Positions 1-60,955 of a DNA stretch of 64,000 nucleotides are shown one piece after another. Position numbers and translations under genes: made by a program. The stretch comes from Enterobacterales bacterium. Lineage in GTDB: Bacteria; Pseudomonadota; Gammaproteobacteria; Enterobacterales; GCA-2746155. Where the stretch lies: the NCBI GenBank assembly GCA_965250035.1, contig OZ252282.1, positions 593,395 to 657,394 of the forward strand, written 5' to 3'. Position 1 is the first letter of the stretch. Every line of letters begins with the position of its first letter. Below the pieces are notes generated by a model, which was not told where the DNA came from, searched no databases, and saw only the letters and a list, made by a program, of their open reading frames with translations.

Positions 1-921
1 GCGGTCATCATAACCGAAACAAATATCCCTAATCGCGAGAACCTGGCTTATTTCGGCAATTCAAACGAGGCACATGCAATTTATAACTTCGCGCTGCCGC
101 CACTGTTATTACATGCACTAGTCTATGGTGATGCGCAGTATCTCAATAATTGGTTGATGAGTATGCCGCCAGCACAGGATGGAACGACCTACTTGAATTT
201 CATTGCCTCACACGATGGCATCGGTTTGCGTCCAGTCGAGGGGATTCTGGAGGATGACAGAGTCGATGAGATGGCTCGGTTGATGCAATCATTCGGTGGT
301 CGTATTTCCTGGCGTAATCTCAGTGATGACCAGGTCAGGCCTTATGAAATTAATATCAGTCTCTATGATGCATTCAAGGGCACGATCAAAGGACCCGACG
401 ACTGGCAAATGCAACGCTTCATTTGTGCCCACGCAATCATGTTAGGTCTAGAAGGAATTCCAGCGATCTACATCCATAGTCTGGTCGCGACTGAAAACGA
501 TTTCGAGCGTGCTGACAACCTATCCCATAATCGAGCGATTAATCGACACGTCTGGGACGCCGATGAACTCGAAGAAAAATTAGATGATCCTGAGAGTCAC
601 CACCATCGAGTTTTCAACCGGTTAAAAGAGATTATCACTATCCGTAAGAAACAAAAGGCATTCCACCCGAACGCTACCCAGTTCACATTGCATTTGGGGG
701 AGGGCATCTTTGCCTACTGGCGTCAAAGTCGTCGACGTGAGCAGAGTATCTTCTGTATCTATAATATCAGCGACACACATCGTGAGTTACCGCTGAACCG
801 AGTCAACCTGGTCGGGACAGACTGCTGGTATAACCTGTTATCGGACAAAGTGTATCAGGATTTACGGGCCACGATTCAACTGGCGCCCTATGAATTTCTG
901 TGGATATCGAATAAGCGCTGA
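1..921 (+). CDS. GH13 sucrose-phosphorylase-family enzyme, C-terminal part (5' end outside window)
   Basis: Frame 1 is open from base 1 and runs into the 154..921 ORF. Motifs [30 protein letters not shown] and [10 protein letters not shown] are typical of sucrose/glucosylglycerate phosphorylases (GH13). Confidence 0.65.
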
Positions 922-961
922 TTTGGATTATCACACCTGGTATATCAAATAAGCGAATTCG

Positions 962-1963
962 TTATGGGTTTAGCTTTTCCAGTTTTCTATTACAACTTAC
1001 TTTTATCCTTATCTTGATATTACCCAGTGCTAACTGCTCCTTGTCGTACTGTTCGTAGATATTTATAGGAAGTCCAACTTTCTCTCTATCTAATTTCCAT
1101 TGAGTAAAATAGTCATCATAAATCTCTTCGTATAAAGTTATTGCTTCTGGTCCGATTTCTTTTAATGCTTTTTGAAGCGACTCTTCGCTGCCCTGTACTA
1201 TAGACAAAGTCACATTAATTAGTTCATATATAGCAATTCTACGCACCTTATCTTTCAGTATTTCTTGCTTGATAGCATCACGATCCAAATCCTCATTTGT
1301 ACTATCGAGTAATTTATTATTTGCAGAAATCCTATCTTTGAGTATCCGAGTGATATTGCTTAAAGCAGTTATATGGCCATTAACAGCAGCTTTGAAAAAC
1401 CAATGAACTGACTTAGTTATGGCTTCGTCGTCGTATTTGTTTTGTGAAACTTGCCTGGGGTATGTCGGTTGATATTGTATTTCTGGTGAGTTAAAAGATT
1501 GGTTTGTCGCAAACCAATGATAATTTATCCCTAAAGCGTACATCGCTAGTGAATCGCCGTTAGTTGTCAACTCTATCAATTGAGATTCTGTATAGTCACC
1601 ATAGGGCTTTAACTCATCGTATGACATGGATAGCCTTTCCCTAGAGAATATTTGGTACGCATATATATCTTCATCATAGAGCAAACTATCAGATGACGTG
1701 CAGTCAATAGAATCCGTTTGAAGCATATGTTGCAATTCTTTATACGACATATCAGAGAGCGTTCGCACGGTATCAGCTGCTACCTCTGTTTCCTCTTCTG
1801 CTGATACATTTTCAATTTTTGTATTTGATGAAGGACCTGCACTAGCTACATTAACTGTATCCGATACTGGTGCAATTGTCTCTACCGGCTCATCGCTTGA
1901 GTTGTAATACAGGGCAAGACCTATGATGAGTATTGTGAGTATGGGGATTACAATCCGTTGCAT
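962..1963 (-). CDS. hypothetical membrane-anchored protein with possible Sel1/TPR-like repeats
   Basis: 333-aa ORF with an N-terminal hydrophobic helix (IVIPILTILIIGLALYY). Segments GDSLAMYALGINY and WFFKAAVNGHITALSNI resemble Sel1-type repeats. Visibly AT-rich compared with the flanking genes. Confidence 0.45.
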   Translation of the reverse strand: MQRIVIPILTILIIGLALYYNSSDEPVETIAPVSDTVNVASAGPSSNTKIENVSAEEETEVAADTVRTLSDMSYKELQHMLQTDSIDCTSSDSLLYDEDIYAYQIFSRERLSMSYDELKPYGDYTESQLIELTTNGDSLAMYALGINYHWFATNQSFNSPEIQYQPTYPRQVSQNKYDDEAITKSVHWFFKAAVNGHITALSNITRILKDRISANNKLLDSTNEDLDRDAIKQEILKDKVRRIAIYELINVTLSIVQGSEESLQKALKEIGPEAITLYEEIYDDYFTQWKLDREKVGLPINIYEQYDKEQLALGNIKIRIKVSCNRKLEKLNP

Positions 1964-2186
1964 CGGCTTAACGTTCCATTTGAACGGTCAGTCAATTATA
2001 CCGAGTTGAACCTTGGACAGGCAATCTCGTTACTGAACGGCAGATAAGTCTCTATCCTAACCCATTGTAGGTGTTGCAGTAGTTGGTATATCCTATGAAG
2101 ATGCATTTGATTACGACACAACGGTGAGTATTGATGCAGGGAAGTGACATTGGAACCATGCATAGGCATGTAGGTAAAAGGCTTAA

Positions 2187-2243
2187 ATGAAATCAATCAA
2201 AGTACTATTCGTCTGCATGGGTAATAATTGGCTATCTAATTAA
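2187..2243 (+). pseudogene. displaced 5' fragment of the LMW phosphotyrosine phosphatase gene (18 codons, then stop)
   Basis: ATG at 2187 encodes MKSIKVLFVCMGN, then NWLSN and a stop. The first 13 residues match the N-terminus and start of the CX5R P-loop of the intact phosphatase at 6440 (MEKIKVLFVCMGNICRSP). AAGG lies just upstream of the ATG. Confidence 0.7.
2196..2226. repeat. left copy of a 31-bp imperfect direct repeat (candidate attL-like junction)
   Basis: atcaaagtActattcgtctgcatgggTaata matches 6449..6479 at 29 of 31 positions in the same orientation. Confidence 0.8.
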
Positions 2244-2587
2244 ATCAATAAGGTACCTTTCTTTGTGTACCATTTTGTATGCCACTAGTAACTAACCTGT
2301 GGTCTGATAAAGTCATGGCTAACTTCAATAATAATGTGGAGCACTATTCATCGATTGATCAATCGCATTCATAGGAATAAGATGTAATTGAGCATGGAGC
2401 ATACTAAGTTATTTATTGGAGTCAGATAATCAGTCTAGAAAGATAATGAAGTGTTAACTTTCTACGTGCCGTACACCAGAATAATATTTTTTCAGAAATA
2501 AGACAGGAATTGGTGTATCACAATAGTAATTAATGTTCCTTATCATAATTAGTTACTTCAGTTGTTATTGCATATTGGATGTGAAAA

Positions 2588-4273
2588 ATGGAATTAAGTA
2601 GTGTGAGTCTGGAAACTTCTGGTCTTCTCCGATTTACTATCGAGAAAACTTTATCCTATTTTGGAAAGGATGATGATACAAGAAAGACCAATGATTGGTT
2701 AAGGCAACATATTGAAGTCGGTTTAGTTCGTGCATCTAATGTACAGGGAATTGGTATGACGCAACCAATTCCTATCGATGACATTTATCAAAAAACCCGT
2801 TTGTATCATCCAAAACCAGAGAAACGTAAAAAGGTTAAATCTATTATTGACCTAGTAAAGGTAGAAGATGGAGCAGTAATCGTAGCGGGTCCTGGTGCCG
2901 GTAAGAGTACTTTAATGCATTGGGCATATCTTAAGTTTCTCAGATGTGAGAATGTAGTTCCATTGCTTTTTATACTGCGTCTTAAACATGGAGTTGATGA
3001 CCTTTCTAGATTTATAAATGAATTACGAAATACTAAAGTAACAAGTATAAAAGAAGCAAAGATCATATTACTTGTCGACGGTTATGATGAAATACCTATT
3101 GAGGAACGGAAGAGAGTTTCTGAATTGTTAGTGAAATTTCTTGGAATGCAGCGAGGTGTATTTGTTTTAACATGCCGAAAGCATTACTCAATTATTGATC
3201 TTCAAGCACCGCACTATCATATTGATAGATTTTCAAACCGAGATGCAAAGAAGTTTGCCCGCGCTTTTTTTAAAGCTCATTCATCTGAAAACGATGCTGG
3301 TGATCTAATATCAGAATTGACAGAGAAGGGTTTTGGAGATTTTATTGGAAGTCCACTGATGTTAACACTTGCATGTGTTCTCAAAACAGGGCCATTACCT
3401 GAACTACCCAAACGATCAATCGGGCTGTTGAGACGAGCTTTAGATACACTTACATTCAGGTGGGACGAAGGGAAAGGTGTATCTCGTGACGGGAAGATCC
3501 CTTTAGATGGTGACGAAAGAATTCGTTGTTTAATGAAAATAGCATATTCATTCAAAAAACCCGTCGGTCGAGAAGAAGATGCTTTACATATTATTGATGA
3601 ACATTTACAGCAGCTACAAAGAACTGAAATAAGCACAATACAGTTATTAGAAGAATTAGCACAATGGTATGGATTACTTGTGCCTACATCAGATGGTGAA
3701 TGGGAGTTTGTCCACCGCACGTTACATGATTATTTAGCTGCTAGGTACTGGGTAGAAAGTGGTGAATTTTGGGCTCATGGATTAATCGAATGGGATACAA
3801 GAGCAGCCTATGCAGCATGCTTAGTACCCGATGCTACAGAGTATTTAAAAAGAGCATTAATTGAATCACCAGACGATATAGTGTTCGCTGAATGCCTAGC
3901 AAATGGTGCTGCCTTTGACTCTTTAAAGGTTGCTCAATCTATGATTGAGAGAGTACATAACAAAAAGACTCGGAGATGTATGTCATATGATAAGTCTAAC
4001 AAGCACATAATTGTTTCATATAAAGAAGATATATGGAGTAACATGAGTACGCAGTTCCTTGATGCTCTAATTCAAGTTGCAAGTAATGGAGCTAACAAGT
4101 CTCATAACGCGATACTGGCGTTATCTTTAGCAGAATCGTTGGGACGCGAAATACGTTATAAATCGATAGATAGGAAAGACTTGAGAGGTTATTTGTTCAC
4201 CGTTTCTATTGGAGATCGAGAGACTGTTGACTTTAGATTTAACGATGTCATTGAGGATAAAAAATCAACATAG
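2588..4273 (+). CDS. NACHT/STAND P-loop NTPase, short form without recognisable fused effector or repeat sensor
   Basis: Walker A VIVAGPGAGKSTL, Walker B ILLVDGYDEIP, sensor-like VLTCRK, GSPLMLTLACV and winged-helix-type EFVHRTLHDYLAARYW, in the order expected for NACHT. About 90 aa precede and about 150 aa follow the core. AT-rich codon usage. Confidence 0.8.
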   Translation: MELSSVSLETSGLLRFTIEKTLSYFGKDDDTRKTNDWLRQHIEVGLVRASNVQGIGMTQPIPIDDIYQKTRLYHPKPEKRKKVKSIIDLVKVEDGAVIVAGPGAGKSTLMHWAYLKFLRCENVVPLLFILRLKHGVDDLSRFINELRNTKVTSIKEAKIILLVDGYDEIPIEERKRVSELLVKFLGMQRGVFVLTCRKHYSIIDLQAPHYHIDRFSNRDAKKFARAFFKAHSSENDAGDLISELTEKGFGDFIGSPLMLTLACVLKTGPLPELPKRSIGLLRRALDTLTFRWDEGKGVSRDGKIPLDGDERIRCLMKIAYSFKKPVGREEDALHIIDEHLQQLQRTEISTIQLLEELAQWYGLLVPTSDGEWEFVHRTLHDYLAARYWVESGEFWAHGLIEWDTRAAYAACLVPDATEYLKRALIESPDDIVFAECLANGAAFDSLKVAQSMIERVHNKKTRRCMSYDKSNKHIIVSYKEDIWSNMSTQFLDALIQVASNGANKSHNAILALSLAESLGREIRYKSIDRKDLRGYLFTVSIGDRETVDFRFNDVIEDKKST

Positions 4274-4323
4274 TTAGTTATTGAATAGTTAAAGTATTAA
4301 GTAGATGACATGAGATAATAGTG

Positions 4324-4467
4324 ATGAAAAATAAGTACTACTTAACTATAATGACTTCGGGCGATAGAGTAATGGAAACTCGCTTGCTGAGAGGCAAGAG
4401 TCTAGTAAGGTTCGATTCCTTACCGCCAAAGGATATTTTGATAGTGTCTTTTGGCGGTATGGATTAG
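4324..4467 (+). CDS. possible 47-aa small ORF (below the ORF-track cutoff), ending 2 nt before the next gene
   Basis: My own translation: MKNKYYLTIMTSGDRVMETRLLRGKSLVRFDSLPPKDILIVSFGGMD, with TAG at 4465-4467 and the next ATG at 4470. No clear Shine-Dalgarno before 4324. It overlaps the hairpins listed next, so coding status is uncertain. Confidence 0.3.
   Translation: MKNKYYLTIMTSGDRVMETRLLRGKSLVRFDSLPPKDILIVSFGGMD
4405..4459 (+). promoter_or_regulatory. two overlapping hairpins: a tRNA T-arm-like hairpin and a 10-bp stem just upstream of the first HEPN gene
   Basis: GTAAGG-TTCGATT-CCTTAC (4405-4423) mimics a tRNA T-arm (GGTTCGATTCC). TACCGCCAAA (4421-4430) pairs perfectly with TTTGGCGGTA (4450-4459) across a 19-nt loop. 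The two structures share bases, so they are mutually exclusive. Confidence 0.35.
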
Positions 4468-4469
4468 AT

Positions 4470-5273
4470 ATGGTTGCCTCTAATCAACAGCTGTACAGAT
4501 ACCATGTAAATAATAATCGTTCAGTAGAAATAGCCCTTAAAAATACATCGTTGGCTGCTAGAAAAGCTATATCTGAAGAAAATGCAACTGCAACGAAATC
4601 ATTTGTTAGCCTGTATGCATTTCTTTTAGGAGCCTGGACTGAAAATAGACACAAGAAGTTACTGTATGAAAGTCCTGGGTTATCTGATCAAGAAAGAAAT
4701 CAAATAATTATAAAACCGACCCAATTAGAAAAATGGGAGAAGTTAATCGAGGTTGCATATCGAAAACACTATCGAATACCGGCAGCTTCACTAGATTATA
4801 ACTCTCTTTCTTTTACCGCTGCCGCTCGATATGTAGTTCTGAACGAAATATTAAACCAAGACCTTAAAAGTGTAATTGAGATTAGAAATAAGTTAGCTCA
4901 TGGTCAATGGGTATACCCTTTAAATAGCAACGAGAATGATATTGAAAATGGAAAATATCAAGCTTTAAATCAGGAAAACCTTGCGGCTTTACAATATAAA
5001 AAATCTTTAATAACTGTTCTTGCTGATCTAGCACATGACCTTGTTGTTTCTCCTCCAACATTTGAAAGAGATTTTGATAATAAATTTCGGCGAATCTCAA
5101 ATACAAGATTGAATTTACAAAATAGAAGTTATCAGAACTATGCTCAAAAGCTTGTAGAAAAGAGAAAGAGAGGAATCCAAAAACGAAAAATTAATGTTAC
5201 ATCTGGTAGTAAGCGATCACGATCTATTTTTGAGAAATTATTTGGTCTAGATAATTTAAAAGAAAGGTATTGA
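4470..5273 (+). CDS. HEPN-domain protein (Abi-like predicted RNase) with a basic C-terminal tail
   Basis: Rx4H motif in SVIEIRNKLAHGQW (R139/H144 of the 267-aa ORF). Helical-looking sequence. K/R-rich tail KLVEKRKRGIQKRKINVTSGSKRSRS. AT-rich. Confidence 0.65.
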   Translation: MVASNQQLYRYHVNNNRSVEIALKNTSLAARKAISEENATATKSFVSLYAFLLGAWTENRHKKLLYESPGLSDQERNQIIIKPTQLEKWEKLIEVAYRKHYRIPAASLDYNSLSFTAAARYVVLNEILNQDLKSVIEIRNKLAHGQWVYPLNSNENDIENGKYQALNQENLAALQYKKSLITVLADLAHDLVVSPPTFERDFDNKFRRISNTRLNLQNRSYQNYAQKLVEKRKRGIQKRKINVTSGSKRSRSIFEKLFGLDNLKERY

Positions 5274-5276
5274 TAG

Positions 5277-6017
5277 ATGAGTAGAACAGACGAGGCAAAA
5301 GTTGAATTTGATGAATTAGTCGCTGAAGGCAAAAAAATTCTTAAAAGTGTATTGGCTGATGAAGATAAGAGCTGGGGTAACTTTCAATGGGTATATCAAA
5401 GTTGGTATACAAGAGCACTACCTGCAGTCGAGTTGATTGCCCCAGACAGATATGAAGAATTTCGTAGATATTACGAACCTGACCCTAAGAGAAAGAGTTT
5501 GGGTTATGGGACCTATGTGATTCAAGATTTCTTTAAGGGGGTTGCTCCAAATAATTACAATTATCCAAATTTTGATACTAAAGAACAGGTTAAGACAGGT
5601 GTTTATAATCAGTTAACTTTGATTAAAGGTATAACATCTCGTATTAATTCAGTGCTAGCTGATTTAGAAACAGAAATATATACGGAATTTAAAGATTCAG
5701 AAATAGAAACTGCACGAGCTTTAGTAAAGGTAAGTGCAAGAGCTTCTGGTGCTCTTGCTGGTGTAGTATTGGAAGGATATTTAAATAAATTATGTACATC
5801 TCATAACATAAAATTTAGAAAAAAAGCACCTACAATATCTGATTATAACGAGGCATTAAAAAAAGCTAAGATACTCAACACTCCTACATGGAGGAAAATT
5901 ACCTATCTAGGCGATATTCGAAATCTGTGCACACATAAAAAAGATGTTGAACCTACAAAAGTTCAGGTAAGTGAAATGATAGACGGGGTTGATTGGGTTT
6001 TGAAAAATATATTTTAG
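5277..6017 (+). CDS. second HEPN-domain protein (DUF4145-like C-terminal half), translationally coupled to the previous gene
   Basis: Rx4H motif in YLGDIRNLCTHKKD near the C-terminus, preceded by ASGALAGVVLEGYLNKLC, which fits the first HEPN helix. The ATG lies 3 nt after the upstream TGA. The N-terminal ~130 aa have no motif I recognise. Confidence 0.6.
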   Translation: MSRTDEAKVEFDELVAEGKKILKSVLADEDKSWGNFQWVYQSWYTRALPAVELIAPDRYEEFRRYYEPDPKRKSLGYGTYVIQDFFKGVAPNNYNYPNFDTKEQVKTGVYNQLTLIKGITSRINSVLADLETEIYTEFKDSEIETARALVKVSARASGALAGVVLEGYLNKLCTSHNIKFRKKAPTISDYNEALKKAKILNTPTWRKITYLGDIRNLCTHKKDVEPTKVQVSEMIDGVDWVLKNIF

Positions 6018-6076
6018 GAAAGTAATAGCTTGTACGAAAGATACAATTACGACTATCTCATTCTCAAATAAACTGA

Positions 6077-6409
6077 CTGAAAAGGAATACGCGCAAGTTA
6101 GAAAAAGAACATTGGACTTATCCATACTGTAATCGCGGCTGCACATTAGGAGATGATGATATTAAGCTTTGTGAAGATGAGGCGTATCTAGCGAAAGATC
6201 ATTGTTACATGAAAGCAAACTGTAAGATAATCATCTGCCCGTTTCCAAATTGTAGGAGATTAACTATAAAAGTACATAGTTTTAACTGCACTGATGGGCT
6301 TAATTATAAATTACAAAAACAATGGTCATTGATACCTGAAGTAAATGCGAAGCCTTTCCTAGATTATATTCCTAAATAGCTACGAGATGATTATTTTGAG
6401 TCTAGCTAA
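6077..6409 (+). pseudogene. decayed and truncated DUF4145-type gene (N-terminal Cys-rich zinc-ribbon-like part only)
   Basis: My own translation: ..EHWTYPYCNRGCTL..IICPFPNCRRLTIKV..WSLIPEVNAKPFLDYIPK*LRDDYFESS*. There is no ATG at the expected start, an in-frame TAG at 6377-6379, and the reading frame ends at 6409 before any HEPN-type domain. The W-x-L-x-P..AK-x-F-x-DYIPK-x-[LI]R-x-DY pattern is what I recall for DUF4145-family N-terminal regions. Confidence 0.45.
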
Positions 6410-6439
6410 GTTATTGATTTTGTGACACTGAGGTATAGC

Positions 6440-6922
6440 ATGGAAAAGATCAAAGTTCTATTCGTCTGCATGGGCAATATCTGTCGTTCGCCAACGGCTC
6501 ATGGCGTGTTTCAAAAGCTGGTCGACGAGGCTGGTTTGAGCGAGCAGATTCTTGTCGATTCGGCTGGAACCATTTCTTACCATGCGGGCGAAGCACCCGA
6601 CCCTCGATCCAGTCAGACGGCCCTGGCGCATGGAATAGACTTATCGCCTCAGCGATCAAGACAGGTGAACGATGATGATTTTGAACGACAGGACTATATC
6701 CTCGCGATGGATTACGACAACCTAAGAAACCTACAACAACAATGTCCTGACCAGTATCAACATAAGCTTCAACTCCTTCTATCCTATCACTCTGACCAGT
6801 ATCTCGATGAAGTACCCGACCCATATTATGGTGGTGCGGATGGATTTGAGACTGTATTCGAGATGATCAACGAAGCATGTGGCGCACTACTGTCTAACAT
6901 TCGCTCAACCCACTCAATTTAG
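6440..6922 (+). CDS. low-molecular-weight protein-tyrosine phosphatase
   Basis: P-loop VLFVCMGNICRSP (CX5R) and DPYYG aspartate loop. ATG at 6440 with GAGG at 6430-6433 is preferred over the GTG at 6422 given in the ORF track. Confidence 0.85.
   Translation: MEKIKVLFVCMGNICRSPTAHGVFQKLVDEAGLSEQILVDSAGTISYHAGEAPDPRSSQTALAHGIDLSPQRSRQVNDDDFERQDYILAMDYDNLRNLQQQCPDQYQHKLQLLLSYHSDQYLDEVPDPYYGGADGFETVFEMINEACGALLSNIRSTHSI
6449..6479. repeat. right copy of the 31-bp imperfect direct repeat (candidate attR-like junction)
   Basis: atcaaagtTctattcgtctgcatgggCaata lies inside codons 4-13 of the intact phosphatase gene and matches 2196..2226 at 29 of 31 positions. Confidence 0.8.
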
Positions 6923-59768: not shown

Positions 59769-59917
59769 ATACAATTACTCATGTATAGAGAAACGTGACT
59801 GTAGCCTGAGTAGACATATTCTTAGTATATATTCAGATTTAATCTATCGCAAATAATATTGATACGATCCTATTATTAATTTACCCCATGATGGGAAACA
59901 AACACGGAGACATTCGG

Positions 59918-60955
59918 ATGAATGACAACAAGAAGAAAGCATTAGATGCGGCACTTGGTCAGATTGAGCGGCAATTTGGTAAGGGCTCGGTCATGAGAAT
60001 GGGTGATGAAGATGCTATGGCTAGAGATCTCGATGTCATATCGACCGGCTCTCTCGGTTTGGATGTTGCACTAGGTGTTGGTGGCTTTCCCAAAGGGCGC
60101 GTCGTAGAAATCTATGGCCCGGAGTCTTCTGGTAAGACGACGTTGGCATTACAGGCAGTTGCCAGTTGTCAGCGAGCCGGTGGAACTGCTGCATTCGTGG
60201 ATGCAGAACATGCTCTGGATCCGATTTATGCCGAAAAGCTTGGCATTGACGTCGATGAGCTGTTGGTCTCTCAGCCAGATACTGGTGAACAGGCCCTTGA
60301 GATTACCGACATGCTGGTGCGTTCCGGCGCAGTTGATATCATCGTGGTCGATTCGGTAGCAGCCCTTACACCTAAAGCTGAGATCGAAGGCGATATGGGC
60401 GACAGCCACATGGGCCTGCAGGCGCGACTGATGTCACAAGCCTTACGTAAGATAACCGGCAACATCAAACGATCCAACTGCCTGGTTATCTTCATTAACC
60501 AGATCCGAATGAAGATTGGCGTCATGTTTGGTAACCCTGAAACCACAACGGGTGGTAATGCGCTTAAGTTTTATGCTTCAGTCCGGCTGGATATCCGTCG
60601 TACGGGGGCCGTTAAGCAGGGCGATGAAGTCGTTGGTAATGAGACGCGGGTTAAGGTCGTTAAAAACAAGGTGTCGCCGCCATTCAAGCAGGCGGAGTTC
60701 CAGATCCTATATGGCGAAGGCTCCAGTCTACAGGGTGAGATTATTGATATCGGCACCAAGCTTGGATTCATCGATAAGGCCGGCGCCTGGTACAGCTACC
60801 AGGGAGAACGTATCGGCCAGGGTAAGATGAACGTCATTCAATATCTGAAAGAAAATACTGAGATGGCTGACGCGATTGAGGCACAGATTAGAGCAGAGCT
60901 ATTGCCACAGAAAAAATCTGCTGCAGACGCTGAGCAGGCCGAGGTAGAGGCCTAA
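59918..60955 (+). CDS. recA: recombinase RecA
   Basis: [23 protein letters not shown], Walker [13 protein letters not shown], and L2 region. ATG at 59918 with GGAGA 7 nt upstream is preferred over 59888. Confidence 0.97.

Follow-up and report, generated by a model that had tools for sequence, protein, structure and literature searches.

Certain mobile elements integrate at the 5′ end of a protein-coding gene and rebuild that gene with sequence of their own. Integrative and conjugative elements of the SXT/R391 family integrate site-specifically at the 5′ end of prfC, to which the element gives a new 5′ end together with a promoter; these elements are about 100 kb in length, conjugative, and carry int and xis. 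Islands that reside in dusA similarly integrate in the 5′ end of their gene and replace it with island sequence, and are bounded by imperfect attL and attR repeats of 21 bp (PMC4482086). Integration at a gene 5′ end with a rebuilt gene is already well documented (PMC4482086). The locus described here comes from contig OZ252282.1 of an Enterobacterales bacterium, and was analysed as one stretch of 64,000 nucleotides, referred to as the window. At 2227-6439 on the plus strand lies a low-GC islet, delimited by its base composition and by its absence from the syntenic locus L083, all of whose genes point in the same direction as the gene for a low-molecular-weight protein-tyrosine phosphatase (LMW-PTP, or PTP) that follows it. 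This islet is probably the remnant of an island that integrated at the 5′ end of the PTP gene by a Campbell-type crossover, most likely integrase-mediated, and whose integrase has since been lost.

The islet is bounded by a pair of direct repeats. The 31-mers at 2196-2226 and 6449-6479 are in direct orientation and identical at 29 of 31 positions, and the two mismatches, A/T at 2204/6457 and T/C at 2222/6475, both occupy third codon positions and are synonymous. Counted from the two ATG codons, the repeat search gives a pair of 40 nt, identical at 34/40 positions and with a spacing of 4253. The left repeat, on the attL side, therefore occupies 2187-2226 with its tight core at 2196-2226, and the right repeat, on the attR side, occupies 6440-6479 inside the working PTP gene, both on the plus strand. 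The similarity is sharply bounded on the left (2187/6440) and on the right (2226/6479), and the repeat flanks share none either 5′ of the ATGs or past the closing ...AATA. Within the 64-kb window, these are the only two copies of the 31-mer at up to three mismatches; the best other 40-mer match reaches 24/40, and of 100 dinucleotide-preserving shuffles, none yielded two repeat matches. The 31-bp repeats reported in an earlier note on this DNA are thus confirmed, and are unique in the window.

Each repeat contains the start of a PTP gene. On the attL side, direct reading of 2187-2243 (plus strand) reveals a dead LMW-PTP stub of 18 codons, in which PTP codons 1-13 are followed by five unrelated codons and a stop. 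Its DNA reads ATG AAA TCA ATC AAA GTA CTA TTC GTC TGC ATG GGT AAT, then AAT TGG CTA TCT AAT TAA, and it translates as MKSIKVLFVCMGN followed by NWLSN. As the earlier note had stated, the stub possesses its own ATG and a ribosome-binding site; the latter reads AAAGG, 5-9 nt 5′ of that ATG. It is the sole second PTP start in a six-frame motif scan of the window and belongs to no other gene, which disposes of the concern, raised in the same note, that it might form part of an unrelated conserved small gene. On the attR side, the gene at 6440-6922 (plus strand) encodes an intact LMW-PTP of 160 aa. It opens ATG GAA AAG ATC AAA GTT CTA TTC GTC TGC ATG GGC AAT ATC TGT CGT..., has GAGG upstream, and its ribosome-binding site and first codons are continuous with islet DNA. 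The protein is full length by its match to Pfam LMWPc (1.1e-42, profile positions 1-144 of 144), and its membership of the LMW-PTP family is further borne out by a CX5R(S/T) P-loop in the form CMGNICRS and by a DPYY loop. The PTP core sequence is AAAGTNCTATTYGTNTGYATGGGNAAYA.

Comparison with other PTP proteins distinguishes the two starts. The N-termini of 19 relatives read MK[QSTP][IVL]KVLF or a close variant, a pattern to which the MKSIKVLF of the stub conforms and from which the MEKIKVLF of the working gene deviates. Therefore, the stub appears to be the old start, and the insert to have brought a new one. Furthermore, the DNA between the repeats is compositionally foreign, its GC content being 0.32-0.40 and that of the flanks about 0.45-0.52. 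For single genes, the values are 0.33-0.38 in the three cargo genes of the islet and 0.42-0.53 in the other genes of the window, except for an open reading frame (ORF) at 962-1963 (0.37). That the ribosome-binding site and first three codons of the working gene derive from the insert, as previously proposed, is supported both by the departure of MEK from the family pattern and by its contiguity with the low-GC DNA.

The nearest PTP relatives share 69-75% protein identity with the window protein, and exact-protein look-ups returned the same strain only. L083, whose PTP is 75% identical, is collinear with the window on both sides, with an amylase gene to the left and the genes for PTP, a TonB-dependent receptor, a lipase, a phosphatase, a fasciclin protein and RNase E to the right. 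The window PTP aligns with that of L083 from 6452 on; L083 has no match to window positions 921-6440, and its PTP gene begins 27 nt past a PALP-family gene. In L084 and L087, a GATase gene is followed directly by PTP, and in L177 the order is a Rieske-type oxygenase gene, a 138-nt ORF and PTP. The earlier note had predicted an empty site in related genomes, with a single copy of the sequence at the PTP 5′ end. This prediction stands insofar as L083, L084, L087 and L177 each carry one uninterrupted PTP start, and falls short insofar as all four lie at 69-75% identity and not within the same species. Short PTP calls of 148-152 aa were considered as possible disrupted 5′ ends and rejected, given that the one from L087 (P0016) is a late start call with MKPIKVLFVC present upstream. 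A contig scan with the PTP sequence gave matches dominated by the universal FVCMGNIC motif, the best of them 60% identical.

In a second lineage, whose PTP (P0012) is 69% identical to that of the window, a second and unrelated element with an integrase relic meets the PTP gene at the same codons, to which allele exchange is likewise restricted. The lineage is represented by four contigs from different samples, L088-L091, all of which end 90-540 nt upstream of PTP, which suggests assembly breaks arising from strain-level heterogeneity at the site. L089 carries on the opposite strand a 98-codon fragment, oriented away from PTP and starting about 180 nt from its ATG, that matches Arm-DNA-bind_3 (PF13356, 5.6e-6), the N-terminal arm-type DNA-binding domain of P4-type tyrosine integrases. 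Between this relic and PTP lie tandem ttgggcacaat repeats, three in L089 and L090 and two in L088 (L089 362-540, L090 91-269 and L088 275-441), which may be arm-type integrase sites. The integrase relic of L088 is more deleted than that of L089, and the loss of part of it therefore indicates stepwise decay of that element.

The PTP of L177, which comes from the same study, differs by one residue, and its upstream context is completely different. When the DNA of L177 and L089 is compared, the sequence upstream of the ATG is unrelated, codon 4 is different (ATA versus GTT), and from codon 5 on the two are identical. The sequences of L088, L089 and L177 show 0 differences in the 411 nt of codons 14-150, and 2-4 in the 30 nt of codons 4-13; for L088 against L177, this clustering gives a one-sided Fisher p of 1.8e-5. 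One of the variable positions is the GG[T/C] that also differs between the window repeats. Between the window and L088, codons for the same amino acid are identical in 8/9 cases within the core versus 36/97 elsewhere (p=0.004). The insertion at codons 4-13 with a replacement 5′ end that the earlier note had put forward is therefore supported by the GC content, by the uninterrupted relatives, and by this second-lineage variation.

In the mechanism that we propose, the two repeats would be attL and attR, produced by one reciprocal crossover between the chromosomal LMW-PTP 5′ end and a similar site carried by a circular mobile element. The crossover would have occurred inside the identical 17-bp stretch CTATTCGTCTGCATGGG, where it is placed because the two mismatches stand on either side of it. 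The chromosome's own promoter-proximal ribosome-binding site and codons 1-13 would have been stranded as the dead stub at 2187-2243, and the ribosome-binding site and first codons supplied by the element would have become the start of the functional PTP at 6440. The restored attB would read ...AAAGGCTTAA ATGAAATCAATCAAAGTA CTATTCGTCTGCATGGG CAATATCTGTCG..., and the circular attP would read ...GAGGTATAGC ATGGAAAAGATCAAAGTT CTATTCGTCTGCATGGG TAATAATTGGCTATC.... The recombinase would most probably have been a tyrosine integrase encoded next to attR and afterwards deleted, such that what persists would be an immobile remnant, retained for its cargo. Decay of the islet is indicated by a start-less ORF fragment at its right end, and by the relic that is progressively deleted in L088 versus L089. 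We infer that an integrase rather than RecA was responsible, that events ran in this direction, and that the integrase was lost later.

Of the features by which islands are recognised, the locus displays gene-duplicating imperfect repeats, a rebuilt gene accompanied by its remnant, and a site that is single-copy in relatives (69-75%), and it lacks an adjacent integrase. The recombinases and transposases of other loci gave no tblastn match to the window, and none of its ten integrase-sized ORFs is an integrase, their products being flagellar, chemotaxis, RecA and other housekeeping proteins. The Pfam and tblastn searches and these ORFs thus bear out the earlier statement that no integrase, transposase or excisionase is encoded in the window. 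A transposon or insertion sequence was rejected as the source of the islet: there is no transposase, the repeat is 31-40 bp long, imperfect and gene-derived, and just a 10-nt inverted match lies inside the ends.

Several observations weigh against integrase-mediated integration at the PTP gene. As already noted, neither the islet nor the remainder of the window encodes an integrase, an excisionase or a transposase. With the closest sampled PTP at 75% identity, there is no same-species empty site, and the intergenic DNA is unalignable. The ORF at 962-1963 is of low GC and L083 has a different gene in its place, so that the left flank and the DNA upstream of the stub are not proven to be native; a third, degraded att copy that might explain this ORF was not found in the window. 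A set of 80 more distant PTP loci is devoid of stubs, and any targeting would thus be limited to a narrow clade. The element in L089 has no sequence in common with the window islet, and its left junction could not be recovered; a search of 5.8 billion proteins with its integrase relic returned the relic alone, and no intact PTP-targeting element was found. Finally, synonymous conservation of the core is significant for one of five pairs.

The lack of any recombinase would be accommodated if none had been needed, the circle having been inserted by RecA or by homology-facilitated illegitimate recombination after transformation, via 30-40 bp of PTP homology from a previous host. The repeat is indeed part of a conserved coding motif, KVLFVCMGN, common to any related-strain donor; recA itself lies in the window (59888-60955); and a mosaic cargo is expected of recombination-assembled DNA. 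However, 31-40 bp with two mismatches is established to be, at best, just at the minimum that efficient RecA exchange usually needs. The incoming copy, moreover, stops exactly after codon 13 and has its own ribosome-binding site and ATG, as in an attP designed to rebuild the gene rather than in a random fragment, and in the second lineage the same position is occupied by an integrase relic and variation is limited to the same codons. We consider insertion without an integrase unlikely. That the two copies exist at all could also reflect a local duplication of the PTP 5′ end, followed by one or more unrelated insertions between the copies, or a chance match, yet nothing specific speaks for either. 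Shuffling reproduces the match in 0/100 cases, the insert is compositionally foreign, and a tandem duplication should carry identical upstream sequence, whereas codons 2-3 and everything upstream are wholly different and the core is bounded. Duplication or chance is accordingly highly improbable.

A further explanation concerns the history of the islet after its arrival. The repeats could be the scar of an older element, with the genes between fixed att scars replaced or accreted at a defence hotspot, such that the 4.2 kb would not be one element. The components of the cargo are never found together in about 85 other loci of its second gene, a decayed fragment lies at the right end, an additional low-GC gene lies outside the left repeat, and the breaks just upstream of PTP in all of L088-L091 suggest strain heterogeneity. 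Conversely, no internal junction repeats or further att copies were detected, and the base composition is uniform across the islet. Cargo turnover between fixed scars is compatible with all of the data, and it supplements rather than contradicts an original integration at the PTP gene; as the explanation for the islet, we regard it as quite unlikely. Integration of an island at the PTP 5′ end, with subsequent loss of its integrase, therefore remains the preferred reading.

The edges of the islet hold further features. The 10-nt AAATCAATAA at 2242-2251 (no strand assigned) is a perfect inverted match to TTATTGATTT at 6411-6420, the pair sitting inward of the two repeats, by 16 nt on the left and by 20 nt on the right. 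An inverted match as long or longer arose in 13 of 2000 shuffles of the 80-nt islet termini (p of about 0.007), and the pair could be a recombinase-binding or terminal motif, or could be due to chance. Outside the left repeat, the minus-strand ORF at 962-1963 (GC 0.37) encodes 333 aa with no Pfam family. It has an N-terminal hydrophobic segment, and in L083 its place is taken by an equally long PALP-family gene on the opposite strand. The foreign block may be larger than the repeats indicate, or this ORF may be a separate acquisition. At the right end, six-frame translation reveals a start-less, Cys-rich reading frame at 6074-6379 on the plus strand (HWTYPYCNRGC...CPFPNC...), which has no start codon before 6209, so that the sole callable ORF is 6209-6379, of 56 aa. 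The frame matches no Pfam family; it may resemble the zinc-ribbon N-terminus of some DUF4145 proteins, and it is probably a decayed gene. Because no plus-strand terminator-like site lies between the cargo genes and PTP, the latter may be transcribed by read-through from the islet.

The first of the three cargo genes (2588-4273, plus strand) encodes a 561-aa P-loop NTPase with a Walker A motif, GPGAGKST, that is STAND/NACHT-like by weak Pfam and NCBIfam matches. Its match to Pfam NACHT (2.2e-4, 21.6 bits) is below the 26.7 cut-off, and it matches in part the NACHT region of the NCBIfam antiphage EruA model (8.1e-10). The gene matches no PADLOC system, and its protein has no match in viral contigs. 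The third (gene 3; 5277-6017, plus strand) encodes a 246-aa DUF4145/HEPN-like protein with the motif RNLCTH, assigned by profiles and a family alignment. Its family comprises 1213 representative clusters; 12 of 22 members match DUF4145, and the Rx4H motif is nearly invariant. Foldseek and PDB searches with gene 3 gave no usable match.

The second cargo gene (gene 2; 4470-5273, plus strand) encodes a 267-aa all-alpha protein that, from alignment, profiles and an AlphaFold model, is a predicted RNase with a divergent HEPN domain of the RiboL-PSP-like type. Over 400 uncharacterised proteins make up its family. In 32 aligned members, the motif that reads RNKLAHGQW (Rx4H) in the window protein has R139, N140 and G145 invariant and H144 in at least 90%, with one member having N. 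Among the 32 members, 20 match PF18735, HEPN_RiboL-PSP (best 1.1e-6), and others match HepT, MAE_28990 or Apea; the window protein itself is below Pfam detection, and it matches PADLOC PDC-M26B at 1.5e-5. The AlphaFold model is all-alpha and confident (pLDDT 88.5), its best Foldseek hit against the PDB is not significant (E 0.34), and a PDB sequence search gave no match. On the basis of the Rx4-6H motif and the profile matches of its family, gene 2 is thus predicted to be a member of the HEPN superfamily.

In about 85 other gene 2 loci, the NACHT gene, gene 3, the Cys-rich fragment and PTP are all absent, apart from a distant NACHT-like ORF in L101 (776-2683, 21% identity to that of the window) that lies upstream of the leader RNA described below and gene 2, and that could reflect either chance or a loose functional link. 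Among these loci, gene 2 has no conserved protein neighbour on either side. Gene 3 was also considered as a paralogue or obligate partner of gene 2 and rejected, given an hhalign probability of 0.2 and the fact that the two are never co-located in other gene 2 loci. The cargo of defence-type genes is thus a mosaic and not one element, as its genes are distributed independently in these loci. In a Tara Oceans contig (L092 1077-16062, equivalent to L097), the leader RNA and gene 2 lie between hsdS and hsdR of a type I restriction-modification locus that also includes Fic and OLD-family/UvrD (Gabija-like) genes. PrrC, an anticodon nuclease, is similarly placed.

Directly upstream of gene 2 lies a leader RNA in the shape of a tRNA. 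ARAGORN reports a "tRNA-???" at 4357-4431 with no assignable anticodon, and the domain itself, delimited by ARAGORN, covariation and a covariance model, spans 4360-4427 on the plus strand. It consists of an acceptor-like stem (4360-4363/4424-4427), a D arm (4367-4381), an anticodon-like hairpin with a 6-nt loop (4383-4398), and a T arm (4405-4423, with its stem at 4405-4410/4418-4423) with the loop TTCGATT. It is followed by a hairpin, predicted by folding and covariation within 4429-4463 (plus strand), whose arms are 4429-4438 and 4442-4451 and whose right arm extends to 4462. The best plus-strand promoter-like match in the region is a -10-like TATAAT at 4347-4352, about 8 nt before the 5′ strand of the RNA. 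A TAnnnT hexamer is likewise found no more than 15 nt upstream in 45/74 family members, and for 31 of these its distance to the acceptor strand is 7-9 nt; because of this hexamer just upstream of the acceptor strand, the RNA probably begins at the transcript start.

The leader is far more conserved than the protein that it precedes, with about 90% nucleotide identity across gene 2 homologues whose proteins are 64-73% identical. A simple T-loop search recovered it in 80 of the 83 loci with enough upstream sequence. A covariance model, built on a MAFFT alignment that had not been fitted to the structure, detected, in 83 loci and the window, a strong plus-strand match (44-125 bits) immediately 5′ of gene 2; the three loci without a match have missing upstream sequence or an uncertain gene start. 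Run against the window and 1.2 Mb of unrelated loci, the same model detected the window copy alone, at 113 bits. In the coordinates of the sampled loci, the leader lies upstream of gene 2 in L092-L176, and the corresponding window span, leader included, is 4347-4472. Public gene calls P0165 and P0205 start too early and translate the tRNA-like DNA (for example ...ETRPPRGGSLVGSDSLPPKG...), an artefact that could mislead domain searches.

The unfitted alignment yields a cloverleaf whose acceptor and D stems are each 4 bp long, with 5 bp in the anticodon-like stem and 6 bp in the T stem; the 10-bp hairpin follows. In this alignment, 93.1% of cells are paired, compared with 41-52% when partners are slid; the covariation score is 0.443, compared with at most 0.137 for slid partners, and 22 of 29 pairs show double-sided changes. 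After fitting to the model, 95.3% are paired and 24/29 pairs have compensatory changes. Almost no variation is seen in the D loop (AATGGAA) or in the T loop (TTCGATT or TTCGAAT). The "anticodon" loop, in turn, is 0-8 nt in length and often a UUCG or GNRA tetraloop, and for this reason the leader cannot decode. It is thus well supported that the leader is a real structured RNA. A genuine tRNA gene was rejected, given an acceptor stem of 4 bp rather than 7, an "anticodon" loop of variable length where 7 nt would be expected, and no assignable anticodon; so was an old tRNA-derived att scar that splits the islet, given that the RNA travels with gene 2, with covariation, in about 85 loci. The Rfam tRNA model RF00005 does not match the window copy at E≤1 and is marginal for 2 of 14 diverse members (29.8 and 27.3 bits, against a threshold of 29); beyond this generic tRNA signal, no Rfam family matches the window copy or the 14 members. 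In the open-access literature, no paper was found that links a tRNA-like RNA with the gene 2 family, HEPN or RiboL-PSP, and nothing specific was found on PDC-M26. As far as could be checked, the leader RNA is undescribed.

The leader can adopt an alternative fold, in which the right arm of the hairpin pairs with the 3′ strands of the acceptor and T stems (4418-4427) and which buries the Shine-Dalgarno-like GGA (4461-4463) that precedes the gene 2 ATG at 4470. This fold covaries as well: pair 92:136 occurs as CG 44 times, as GC 12 times and as UA twice, and pair 90:138 occurs as five pair types. The long hairpin is the predicted ground state by a median margin of 15.6 kcal/mol, and within it the median number of paired nucleotides among the 14 that precede the start region is 12. 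A leader with two folds that exclude each other, each maintained by selection and one concealing the ribosome-binding site, would amount to a cis-acting switch. By analogy with the yjdF riboswitch, in which a tRNA-like fold has been shown experimentally to compete with pairing between the T-loop and the Shine-Dalgarno sequence (PMC9142559), we tentatively suggest, with a little less than even confidence, that the leader is a translational switch acting in cis, which would silence the toxic RNase as long as nothing stabilises the tRNA-like fold. In the AbiF/RCd22 system, a structured upstream non-coding RNA represses a HEPN-type Abi toxin in cis as well as in trans (PMC12373285), and by the same kind of analogy the leader may additionally be an RNA antitoxin, as RCd22 is for AbiF.

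More broadly, 4347-5273 could represent an undescribed RNA-protein module of the defence or toxin type, a proposal for which we judge the case to be evenly balanced. In such a module, a tRNA-derived, bistable leader would be associated one-to-one with a divergent predicted HEPN RNase in several phyla. The tRNA fold would be a sensor or antitoxin, which either a tRNA-recognising factor or the RNase itself would bind or stabilise, and translation of the toxin would be prevented by the alternative hairpin. Since tRNAs are common targets of HEPN RNases, a tRNA mimic wired to one of them suggests a direct link between the substrate of the toxin and its control.

Among the described elements, the islet most closely resembles the dusA-specific islands and prophages with DAI integrases (Farrugia et al. 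2015, PMC4482086). In both cases, the 5′ end of a housekeeping gene is occupied, the element supplies the start, the old 5′ end persists as a remnant, the direct repeats are imperfect and a few tens of bp in length, and the cargo includes defence genes and remnants. Here, however, the target is LMW-PTP, there is no integrase in the window, and the islet is merely 4.2 kb; the sole linked integrase is the fragment in L089, which matches an arm-type domain typical of P4-type integrases. The islet also differs from the SXT/R391 elements, being without any mobility genes. Nothing specific on LMW-PTP as an att site was found in the open-access literature. LMW-PTP would thus join the short list of protein-coding att genes that are rebuilt by the element, alongside dusA and prfC. 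The locus would further illustrate such an att site after decay of the integrase, and could help to delimit small defence islets that are missed by searches for mobility genes.

The leader, for its part, can be compared with three kinds of RNA. In environmental bacteria, irregular allo-tRNAs are encoded close to toxin-antitoxin or mobile genes, and some of them seem not to be used in translation (Mukai et al., PMC5389517). They have 8/4 or 9/3 acceptor and T stems, real anticodon loops and long variable arms, whereas the leader has a 4/6 geometry, an "anticodon" loop of 0-8 nt, and a fixed 1:1 association with one protein family. AbiF/RCd22 and type III toxin-antitoxin systems share with the present locus a HEPN-type protein encoded after a conserved structured RNA, as a standalone pair in defence or mobile contexts, but the leader is a single tRNA-shaped domain rather than a series of repeated motifs. 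Correspondingly, none of the 32 aligned gene 2 members, the window protein included, has an Abi_2 domain, and the Rfam abiF motif matches neither the window copy nor the 14 diverse members. The Rfam yjdF model likewise has no match at E≤1 in the window copy or in these members. With the yjdF riboswitch, the leader nonetheless shares a tRNA-shaped 5′ structure with a D-loop and a T-loop, an OFF state in which the T-arm pairs with the Shine-Dalgarno sequence, and an ON state in the tRNA-like fold; it differs in its downstream HEPN gene and in its 4-bp acceptor and 6-bp T stems. If these assignments are true, the leader would be the second natural tRNA fold to serve as a cis-regulatory element, after yjdF, and a new RNA partner of a HEPN toxin, after AbiF.

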